Shown piece after piece: positions 41,172 through 42,421 of a stretch of DNA of 64,000 bases (position 1 is the stretch's first letter; each line of letters starts with the position of its first letter). A program made the position numbers and the translations under genes. Location of the stretch: the IMG/VR virus record IMGVR_UViG_2875713109_000001; one strand, 5' to 3'. The stretch is from a virus (lineage: Duplodnaviria > Heunggongvirae > Uroviricota > Caudoviricetes). The notes under the pieces are model-generated. The model was not told where the DNA came from, did not search any database, and saw only the letters and a program-made list of their open reading frames with translations.

Positions 41172-41676
41172 TTACCAGGCACTGCGTGAGGCGGCGGAAC
41201 GTGCAATTCCAGCAATGGAACGCCTGTTAATGTTGCCAGCTGATGATGATTTGTTAAGTGAACAGGAACTTAAAGATTACGGTGTGGATATTGATGCGCT
41301 CAACGCCTTCAAATTTCTGGCCGGACCAGAAACCGTGCTGGCACTACTGGATGAACGGGAAAGGAACCAGCAATACATCAAACGCCGCGACCAGGAGAAC
41401 GAGGATATTGCGCTAACGGTAGGGAAGCTGCGCGTTGAGCTTGAAGCAGCAAAATCAAAACTCAACGAGCAGCGTGAATATTACGAGGGAGTAATCGCGG
41501 ATGGAAGTAAGCGCATAGCAGAACTGGAGGAGCGGGAAATACTGCTCCCGGAACGTAGCAGCATGCTTCATCGAACAGATTTTCACGATGATTACCAAAC
41601 GGTAATGGCATACAAAGTTTCTGAAGTCATCGCTGCAATCCGCGCCGCAGGCATTCGCATCAAAGGAGGTGAGTAA
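41158..41676 (+). CDS. hypothetical coiled-coil protein
   Basis: GTG at 41158 with SD caggggg; ORF-track start 41134 is TTG. Confidence 0.4.
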   Translation: MSEINYQALREAAERAIPAMERLLMLPADDDLLSEQELKDYGVDIDALNAFKFLAGPETVLALLDERERNQQYIKRRDQENEDIALTVGKLRVELEAAKSKLNEQREYYEGVIADGSKRIAELEEREILLPERSSMLHRTDFHDDYQTVMAYKVSEVIAAIRAAGIRIKGGE

Positions 41677-41852
41677 TGCGTGTGGCATGTATCGGCTTGT
41701 TACCGTACCCGACTCGTTTTTGGGCTTCTGCGCTAATTGCAAAGCCGTATGTCCTGATGGCTGACAACATCATCCCGGCACCAAAGCGCCGCCATACCGG
41801 TATTGCAGCGGCACGACGAGCAGCAAAGAGACGCAGGAGAGCAAAGCGATGA
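41676..41852 (+). CDS. small basic protein
   Basis: 58-aa ORF MRVACIGLL...AKRRRRAKR, Arg/Lys-rich C-terminus; not in ORF track (below size cutoff); stop overlaps next start. Confidence 0.3.
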   Translation: MRVACIGLLPYPTRFWASALIAKPYVLMADNIIPAPKRRHTGIAAARRAAKRRRRAKR

Positions 41853-42025
41853 AAAACCGTAAGGCAAAACGACTTTTTTTACAGCGACCTGTGCGTGTGG
41901 TGGAGCTGGTTATTAGCAACCATAAGATAGCGGTACTCCATCCATTTGGTCAGGTGGCTTTTGCCGCAAAGCGTAAGCCTACTGCGTCACAGAACAGGCG
42001 GAAGAAAGGGTACGCAGTAAGATGA
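41849..42025 (+). CDS. small basic protein (MKNRKAK family, copy 1)
   Basis: 58-aa ORF MKNRKAKRLFLQRPVRVVELV...; shares N-terminus with next ORF; overlapping stop/start. Confidence 0.3.
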   Translation: MKNRKAKRLFLQRPVRVVELVISNHKIAVLHPFGQVAFAAKRKPTASQNRRKKGYAVR

Positions 42026-42210
42026 AAAACCGTAAAGCAAAGATTCTGTTAGTTCGTAGAAACGCTCCTGGCGTCTGGCAGTGGGTGAGACTCAGCAACC
42101 GACGGATGGGGTTGATGAAATATTACGGGATGATGGATTGTGGTTTTTGCAAAAAGCCCAGCGCGGCGCAAAACCGCTGGAAAAACCACTTGCGCACTAA
42201 AGGAGAGTGA
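42022..42210 (+). CDS. small basic protein (MKNRKAK family, copy 2)
   Basis: 62-aa ORF in track; N-terminus MKNRKAKILLVRR paralogous to preceding ORF. Confidence 0.35.
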   Translation: MKNRKAKILLVRRNAPGVWQWVRLSNRRMGLMKYYGMMDCGFCKKPSAAQNRWKNHLRTKGE

Positions 42211-42211
42211 T

Positions 42212-42421
42212 ATGGCTATCGCTGCAAGTTACACCATGCATCTCTATTGTGATTGCCTCCAGTGTACAGATGGCAAATATAAGTCGCCAGACTTCGGTGA
42301 GTATATAGGTACGTCATGGGCTGGCTGTGCAAAAGAGGCGCGCAAGGATGGCTGGCGAATAAGCAAAGACAAAACGCGTGCTTTTGCGCCCGGGCATAAA
42401 GTTTTGAGGATTAACAAATGA
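42212..42421 (+). CDS. hypothetical Cys-rich small protein
   Basis: 69 aa with CDCLQC; ATG with strong SD aaaggagag. Confidence 0.35.
   Translation: MAIAASYTMHLYCDCLQCTDGKYKSPDFGEYIGTSWAGCAKEARKDGWRISKDKTRAFAPGHKVLRINK

Follow-up and report, generated by a model that had tools for sequence, protein, structure and literature searches.

One important question raised by a cluster of small genes in a tailed virus (Caudoviricetes; IMG/VR record IMGVR_UViG_2875713109_000001, a stretch of 64,000 nucleotides whose full length is hereafter called the window) is whether its consecutive short and basic open reading frames (ORFs) are real genes, and whether the two that open with the same residues, MKNRKAK, arose by a fresh duplication or by an older one. 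The answer that we favour, with a probability of about 0.6 for the whole of it (descriptive and functional parts blended), is that the four ORFs at 41676-42421, here named ORF1 to ORF4, belong to a mobile accessory cassette of temperate phages in which ORF2 and ORF3 are ancient paralogues whose cationic products may act together on nucleic acid or another conserved target. The descriptive part of this answer (real genes, ancient paralogues, a mobile cassette of the exo-xis/ea type and a coupling-type architecture) is held with high confidence; the functional part (binding of nucleic acid or of a conserved target, and joint action of ORF2 and ORF3) is put forward tentatively.

The sequence from 41400 to 42900 was inspected together with a six-frame ORF list, and the four ORFs were delimited as follows:

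41676..41852, + strand: ORF1, 58 amino acids, isoelectric point (pI) 12.0, family phrog_13831 (E 1.1e-41)
41849..42025, + strand: ORF2, 58 amino acids, pI 12.0, phrog_1380 of the 'upstream-type', body type B (E 6.5e-23)
42022..42210, + strand: ORF3, 62 amino acids, pI 11.3, phrog_1380 of the 'terminal-type', body type A (E 1e-40)
42212..42421, + strand: ORF4, Cys-rich, 69 amino acids with four Cys, phrog_926 (E 1.5e-36)

The products of ORF1, ORF2 and ORF3 are MRVACIGLLPYPTRFWASALIAKPYVLMADNIIPAPKRRHTGIAAARRAAKRRRRAKR, MKNRKAKRLFLQRPVRVVELVISNHKIAVLHPFGQVAFAAKRKPTASQNRRKKGYAVR and MKNRKAKILLVRRNAPGVWQWVRLSNRRMGLMKYYGMMDCGFCKKPSAAQNRWKNHLRTKGE, with 15, 16 and 16 Lys plus Arg residues, respectively. 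The first-pass annotation of this DNA had described three small basic ORFs in tandem with overlapping stop and start codons, and this is what is seen on the + strand at 41676-42210, where both the ORF1/ORF2 and the ORF2/ORF3 junctions read ATGA. All junctions of the cluster are stop/start overlaps or, between ORF3 and ORF4 (TGAtATG), a 1-nt gap; the preceding Ea22-like gene meets ORF1 at TAATG, and ORF4 overlaps the following gene, which encodes a DUF551-domain protein, at ATGA. The Cys-rich ORF of 69 residues that the same annotation had placed behind a strong Shine-Dalgarno (SD) sequence was also recovered (AAGGAG, -9.1 kcal/mol), its start being corrected to 42212 instead of 42213.

Conservation of the reading frames in relatives had been named beforehand as a check on these ORFs, and the frames proved to be kept, with signs of purifying selection. 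Pairwise ratios of non-synonymous to synonymous substitution rates (dN/dS), calculated by the Nei-Gojobori method, lay between 0.09 and 0.5 for most pairs in all four ORFs, with ranges of 0.10 to 0.23 for the ORF2 type (0.08/0.23 within the type), 0.12 to 0.24 for the ORF3 type, 0.09 to 0.50 for the E type and 0.09 to 0.24 for ORF4. The comparison of ORF1 with that of phage phiV10 gave 0.14 (7 synonymous and 3 non-synonymous differences), and that of the window with TL-2011b gave 0.72, a value derived from only 6 differences in all. Invariant residues are specified by varied codons (Lys AAA/AAG, Leu CTT/CTG, Arg CGC/AGG/AGA, Gln CAA/CAG), and the ORF1 of phage Min27 is a variant with a 7-codon deletion that remains in frame. 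The low dN/dS values, the synonymous changes at invariant residues and the in-frame deletion indicate that ORF1 to ORF4 are real protein genes maintained by purifying selection.

The common start of ORF2 and ORF3 had been attributed to a local duplication. Both N-termini do read MKNRKAK, and the underlying repeat was confirmed, since the 15-mer GATGAAAAACCGTAA occurs exactly twice in the window, at 41848 and 42021, with no further copy at up to 1 mismatch and 0 matches in 100 shuffles. The repeat stretches to 21 nt with 95% identity, and near-identity in the DNA alignment of the two genes is confined to these first 21 nt. The kinship of ORF2 and ORF3 is thereby borne out, but the duplication is neither recent nor limited to the N-termini, for the proteins are related over their full length, with 37% identity over 54 residues (blastp, E 5e-10); the phrog_1380 hidden Markov model (HMM), which has 62 positions, is matched by ORF3 at 1-62 and by ORF2 at 1-60. 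In an alignment of 17 members of the family the columns M1 K2 N3 R4 K5 A6 K7 L9, S25 N26 and Q50 N51 R52 K54 are invariant, W53 and H56 are nearly so, and the segment between the motifs is hypervariable. The family can be written as MKNRKAKxL ... SN[RH][RK] ... SAAQNRWKNH, and MKNRKAKxL, SN[RH][RK] and QNR-x-K are present in both ORF2 and ORF3. Judging from these alignments, the near-identical 21 nt are the invariant MKNRKAK motif of phrog_1380 and not the scar of a fresh duplication, and the two genes are paralogues of long standing within a single orphan family.

The same tandem was found in other replicons. The ORF2/ORF3 pair is identical in the P1-like phage RCS47; in TL-2011b, ORF2 (98% identity) precedes a different allele with 57% identity to ORF3, and in HEMP4 a relative of ORF2 (64%) is followed by yet another allele. 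The epsilon15-like podovirus phiV10 has Ea22, ORF1 (95%), two successive copies and ORF4 (94%) with the same overlaps kept, the whole cassette showing 50 to 95% identity, and its GenBank record already notes p51 as similar to p50. Since the tandem recurs with other alleles in phiV10, TL-2011b, HEMP4 and RCS47, the duplication predates the spread of these genes among phages. A single phrog_1380 copy is carried by Min27/933W (98% identical to ORF3), by D6 and Sasha and by a phage of Yersinia.

The 2.1 kb around the ORFs are 100% identical to Escherichia coli IncY plasmids (e.g. CP057623.1 and NZ_MN510447.1) and 99% identical, in pieces, to RCS47, and they find piecewise matches of 90 to 98% in more than 500 phage records, mostly of lambdoid phages that convert their hosts to Shiga toxin (Stx) production. 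Of 5426 complete E. coli genomes, 1042 (about one fifth) contain parts of the cassette and 47 the full version with four ORFs. The gene order in Min27 and 933W is exo, orf60a, orf63, orf61, ea22, ORF1, the phrog_1380 gene, ORF4, small genes, DUF551, xis and int, which places the homologues of these two phages in the lambdoid exo-xis/ea location, between exo and xis and by ea22. The cassette of the window also adjoins an Ea22 gene, but within a P1 backbone. Thus, the first-pass annotation was right in pointing to P1-like genomes as far as the replicon is concerned, but the cassette itself is not specific to P1 and belongs to the variable lambdoid exo-xis/ea region downstream of ea22. In Min27, the same cassette includes pMIN27_07 (positions 2908-3126), which is absent from the window and bears the RefSeq label 'released from the phage upon host infection'.

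Identical or nearly identical hypothetical proteins are deposited for RCS47, phiV10 (p49 to p52), Min27 (pMIN27_08/09), D6 (orf101/102) and many E. coli plasmids, so that the ORFs are already catalogued as such and are ordinary for the accessory region of a temperate phage. The records are uneven: the PGAP annotation of CP057623.1 omits ORF2, RCS47 has only ORF2 and ORF4 (ORF1 and ORF3 are missing), and in the original 933W record neither ORF1 nor the phrog_1380 gene is annotated and ORF4 appears in over-extended form as L0068 (95 amino acids).

The arrangement of phrog_1380 genes was analysed in 130 loci, obtained from an IMG/VR scan with the exact conserved 5' (N-terminal) DNA pattern together with previously fetched loci. 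They contain 184 copies and 88 distinct proteins, arranged as 78 single genes, 50 pairs and 2 triples, and 49 of the junctions have the form ATGA, in which the stop of one copy overlaps the start of the next. The C-terminal tail depends on the position in the array. Copies that are not the last one end in ...QNRRKKGYAVR in 46 of 54 cases, and 103 of the 130 last or single copies have the ending ...QNRWKNHLRTKGE/D (KGE/KGD); ORF2, whose body carries the motif ISNHK, has the QNRRKKGYAVR tail and ORF3 ends in ...SAAQNRWKNHLRTKGE. Clustering of the cores gave about ten body types. Types B (that of ORF2) and C, both with ISNHK, occur only upstream of another copy and were never single or last in the 130 loci. 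The pairings observed were B-A (29), B-E (3), C-F (4), C-E (3), C-G (1), D-E (3) and A-E (1), besides a B-A-E triple. One body type may bear either tail, which indicates that the tail goes with the junction; the upstream copy of phiV10, for instance, joins a body of the single-copy type to a GYAVR tail. The array is directly preceded by ORF1 in 90 of the 126 loci with enough flanking sequence and directly followed by ORF4 in 51 of 120. The triple lies at 1194-1737 (- strand) of locus L099 and consists of B, A (with a GYAVR tail) and E, with ATGA overlaps throughout; locus L120 has a pair with a third copy 742 nt off.

Ends and cores of phrog_1380 also differ in their constraint. With dN/dS pooled within body types, the ends gave 0.19 and the cores 0.38, so the cores are less constrained, yet not positively selected at this resolution; synonymous divergence (pS) was higher in the ends (0.104) than in the cores (0.069). 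The conserved positions are polar or basic, and the core is hydrophobic and variable. The conserved ends of the genes directly adjoin those of their neighbours and probably serve also as homology patches for recombination that shuffles the cores. Only three features of the family are unexpected, and mildly so: a tail that depends on position, a subtype obliged to stand upstream, and a design of conserved ends around a variable core. An exhaustive HMMER profile search through 1.84 billion representative proteins yielded no more than 48 clusters, none of them with a known domain and all of them small family-like proteins or annotation fusions, which indicates that phrog_1380 is a narrow family without detectable relatives. 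A hit of 264 amino acids with an apparent 'four-repeat' structure (P0084) was discarded as a spurious repetitive hydrophobic ORF, and long fusion proteins of the phrog_12350/phrog_9263 type were set aside, as they look like over-extended or frameshifted calls through neighbouring frames.

The expression of the cluster can be considered from its position behind a phage P1-type operator. The further features of the operon are:

40389..40405, + strand: homologue of the P1 C1-repressor operator OpmgT (formerly Op88), 1 mismatch to the consensus, with predicted overlapping sigma-70 promoters
40584..41171, + strand: first large gene of the operon, 195 amino acids, phrog_874, function unknown (SD -11.2 kcal/mol)
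41158..41676, + strand: Ead/Ea22-like gene (Pfam PF13935, E 6.9e-38), coordinates mapped from PGAP in CP057623.1
42418..43134, + strand: gene for a DUF551-domain protein (EaA-like; Pfam PF04448, E 2.2e-21), next in the cassette, annotated in CP057623.1

The operator, ATTGCTCTAATAAATAT, directly follows pap, and the surrounding 720 bp are about 96% identical to P1 (NC_005856). The aligned P1 site is annotated as the protein-binding site OpmgT, a monovalent C1 operator with the promoters P1pmgT/P2pmgT, and P7 annotates the equivalent site as Op(hea). With up to 3 mismatches, the C1 operator consensus ATTGCTCTAATAAATTT has 15 matches in the window (e.g. at 5695, 20865, 24387 and 53934), against 0.37 expected by chance. 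The nearby pmgS, pap, pmgU/V-like and hot genes are P1 backbone, and from 40405 to 42421 the + strand was free of terminator-like sites. Because the operator is homologous to an annotated P1 site and no such terminator-like site intervenes, C1 would be expected to repress the operon in the plasmid prophage, with expression following on derepression. This location seems to parallel the early position of the cassette on the pL side of lambdoid phages. Between the operator and the first large gene there is a hydrophobic ORF of 28 amino acids with its own AGGAG site (40488-40574, + strand; MNTAFKIIMAAIYFWLFSITFGGIVAHG), preceded by an inverted repeat at 40438-40460; the equivalent stretch of phage SJ46 is annotated as 'membrane protein'.

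At the level of translation, the predicted energies of pairing with the anti-SD sequence were -12.9 kcal/mol for ORF1, -7.4 for ORF2, -4.5 for ORF3, -9.1 for ORF4 and -6.0 for the DUF551 gene, against a mean of -2.3 kcal/mol over the window, in which about 2% of positions reach -8. Across all loci the first copies averaged -7.4 kcal/mol and the 51 downstream copies -5.2. A weak downstream ribosome-binding site combined with a stop/start overlap is the classical set-up for termination-reinitiation, and at the sequence level ORF2 and ORF3 have both features of a coupled pair, the ATGA overlap at 42022-42025 and the weak SD of ORF3. Since the downstream paralogue has a weak site of its own and overlaps the upstream stop, ORF3 is most likely translated by termination-reinitiation from ORF2.

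The search for functions gave little beyond the families themselves. Scans of Pfam, NCBIfam and PADLOC yielded no informative family match for the four ORFs and no toxin, antitoxin or defence family, the only hits being a sub-threshold zinc-finger match in ORF3 and a chance-level NCBIfam match in ORF2 (E 0.13). Nor did any of the findings speak for toxicity of the products. Profiles built from the phrog_1380 and ORF4 alignments retrieved nothing, or noise only, from the PDB sequences, hhalign revealed no relationship of the ORF1 or ORF4 family to that of ORF2 and ORF3, and a permissive Rfam scan of 40300-43600 had as its sole hit a sub-threshold GcvB match outside the ORFs. Structural superposition on dsRNA-binding domains did not support an assignment to the alpha-beta-beta-beta-alpha fold of the double-stranded RNA-binding domain (dsRBD). 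ORF1 matches phrog_13831 over positions 1-58 of 58 and has a conserved Arg-rich C-terminus (...PKRRHTGIAAARRAAKRRRRAKR), the segment TGIAAARRAAKKRRRAKR being kept in the family alignment. ORF4 matches positions 1-69 of 69 of the phrog_926 HMM. In its family Y12, C13, D14, C15, C18 and G47 are invariant, W48-R49-I50-S51 and R56 are nearly invariant, and His62 (AP[GN]HK) is kept in full-length members. Three of the four Cys of ORF4 are thus invariant (C13, C15 and C18; Y-C-D-C-x2-C), a pattern that suggests a CCCH zinc site; the AlphaFold2 (AF2) model of ORF4 had a predicted local distance difference test score (pLDDT) of 75.5, and no fold match was found for it.

Taken together, these data are consistent with the following scheme. 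A mobile accessory cassette made up of ea22, ORF1, one to three phrog_1380 genes, ORF4 and the DUF551 gene circulates among lambdoid Stx phages (there within exo-xis), the epsilon15-like phiV10, P1-like phage-plasmids and others. In the window it occupies the P1 pmgT operon behind OpmgT/Op88, where it would be silent in the lysogen and transcribed on derepression; translation of ORF2 would lead to reinitiation at ORF3, so that the synthesis of ORF3 would be tied to that of ORF2. The products would be small, strongly cationic early proteins whose conserved polar and basic surface may bind nucleic acid or another conserved target, with the ORF2-type and ORF3-type proteins possibly working as a pair. 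Conserved polar and basic positions around a variable hydrophobic core are the pattern expected of a small protein that grips a conserved ligand, and the net charge of about +14 makes nucleic acid the simplest candidate. The strict need of the ORF2 type for a following copy, together with the coupled junction, suggests joint action.

Several points weigh against this scheme. Frameshifted variants exist in public data, both of ORF1 (P0208 and P0212, the latter on 95 contigs) and of phrog_1380 genes (P0054 and P0060), which indicates that some lineages tolerate loss of the genes. These four may be pseudogenes or sequencing errors. The use of an exact N-terminal DNA pattern to find the loci biases the statistics of N-terminal codons, and the promoter-like and terminator-like hits in the region were not above chance. 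The AF2 model of ORF3 (alpha-beta-beta-beta-alpha) is of moderate confidence, with a pLDDT of 71 and a predicted template modelling score of 0.34, and both nucleic-acid binding and the ORF2/ORF3 partnership are deduced from composition and arrangement. As a separate observation, the frameshifted family proteins read their middle part in the alternative frame of the ORF3 type and then regain the family C-terminus, and the ORF1 variants run into the next gene; in the window, the +1 frame of ORF3 is open for 39 codons at 42081-42200.

Four other explanations were weighed against the scheme. That the ORFs are a recent tandem duplication within this replicon, possibly encoding toxic peptides or a toxin-antitoxin pair, would agree with the 95% identity of the first 21 nt of ORF2 and ORF3 and with the small size and high basicity of both proteins, but the amino-acid identity of only 37% beyond those 21 nt, the identical B-A pair in 29 other loci, the pairs of other alleles in unrelated phages and the lack of any toxin, antitoxin or defence family match make it very improbable. 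Equally hard to credit is a zinc-finger nucleic-acid-binding role of ORF3, of the C2H2-like or CxxC kind, to which its CGFC sequence and a weak match to Pfam zf-C2H2_jaz (residues 40 to 60, E 0.096) had pointed. The match scores 13.3 bits against a gathering threshold of 22.6, the family does not keep the two Cys of ORF3, which types B, C, E and G lack, and there is a single His; for these reasons the assignment was rejected.

It might also be argued that the conserved ends are mainly linkers for recombination at the DNA level and that the frames are tolerated passengers with little or no function as proteins. The conserved blocks do span the junctions (the 3' end of ORF1 with the 5' end of the family genes, and the 3' end of the latter with the 5' end of ORF4), tails follow junctions and either tail can be found on one body type, frameshifted variants occur, and the higher synonymous divergence of the ends is as expected if the ends recombine. 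However, dN/dS is well below 1 in ends and cores alike, invariant residues survive synonymous changes (R CGC/AGG/AGA; Q CAA/CAG), and frame and length are kept across alleles at 37 to 57% identity, so that we consider this explanation improbable. A stronger competitor, still unlikely in our judgement, is that the proteins take part in an arms race as counter-defence or host-takeover factors, with the variable core and the combinatorial arrays reflecting diversification against host targets such as defence systems, and the conserved ends serving as a scaffold or as recombination handles. The common ends of at least nine body types, the 88 distinct proteins among 184 copies, the occurrence in early accessory regions of several unrelated types of temperate phage and the changing make-up of the arrays, which hold 1 to 3 copies, would all fit. 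A more elaborate form of the scheme that we favour can be conceived, in which an upstream-only, ORF2-like subtype is made in a fixed ratio to, and pairs with, interchangeable terminal ORF3-like subtypes, the end motifs gripping a common nucleic-acid or host target and the hypervariable cores setting the specificity. These combinatorial small cationic proteins would then form an unrecognised class of early effectors (e.g. for counter-defence or host takeover), spread by cassette shuffling across unrelated temperate phages. We regard this form as speculative and quite unlikely, but if an effector system lay behind the paired design with hypervariable cores, it would offer a new handle on early host manipulation by temperate phages after induction.

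With respect to known systems, the ORFs are plain members of phrog_1380, phrog_13831 and phrog_926, from which they do not differ and which are without functional annotation. The small genes of the lambda/Stx exo-xis region (orf60a, orf63, orf61, ea22, orf73, ea8.5 and orf55) are likewise small, densely packed and dispensable-looking, and in Stx phages they share this early region with the homologues of ORF1, phrog_1380 and ORF4, which come right after ea22 and before xis. The exo-xis region has been assigned roles in the lysis-lysogeny decision (PMC8614690, PMC10789677), and the stretch between ea22 and xis is described as variable, with gene duplications, and uncharacterised (PMC8614690). 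Nevertheless, none of the characterised exo-xis proteins resembles the ORFs in sequence or fold; the ORFs form part of the unstudied 'variable set of downstream genes' and in the window stand in a P1-type operon instead of the pL operon. No study of these ORFs was found in the literature, in which papers on the exo-xis region end at ea22 or treat the region as one block. The cassette shares with the P1 pmgT and P7 'hea' operons its place after pap and an operator-promoter region that is 95 to 96% identical, and the operon of P7 also contains an Ead/Ea22-like gene; however, pmgT is here replaced by a lambdoid-type ea cassette, and the P1 reference lacks all four small ORFs.

A lead for comparison is provided by RNA-binding peptides rich in arginine, of which the N-terminal motif of lambda N is an example. 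They resemble the ORF products in their short basic Arg/Lys runs with a conserved Trp (QNRWKNH; the ORF1 tail RRAAKRRRRAKR), but no homology was detected and no boxB-like RNA partner was identified. Mosaic lambdoid genomes are known for conserved 'boundary' or 'linker' sequences at gene junctions, in line with the concept of modular evolution. Here too conserved DNA blocks span the junctions, interiors vary and alleles are freely combined; the junction blocks differ, however, in that they also encode invariant, selected motifs, and the GYAVR-ATGA junction is found only between tandem paralogues.

The carriers of the cassette include Shiga-toxin prophages and P1-like resistance plasmids. The practical gains are a clean gene model and a positional rule for the tails, by which annotation can be fixed and defined constructs made available to those who work on small proteins or on the exo-xis region.

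Two further observations were made at the downstream border of the cluster. The best promoter-like match of the region lies on the - strand at 42451-42424 (TTGTCA, 16 nt, TATAGT; 10/12); it is located at the start of the DUF551 gene and points into ORF4 in antisense orientation, in a region where the number of such hits is not above chance. The DUF551 protein (42418-43134) is a mosaic: the first ~50 residues, the middle part and the C-terminal DUF551 domain resemble different relatives, with widely differing identity; its segments show 92% and 45% identity in RCS47 and match several separate PHROGs.

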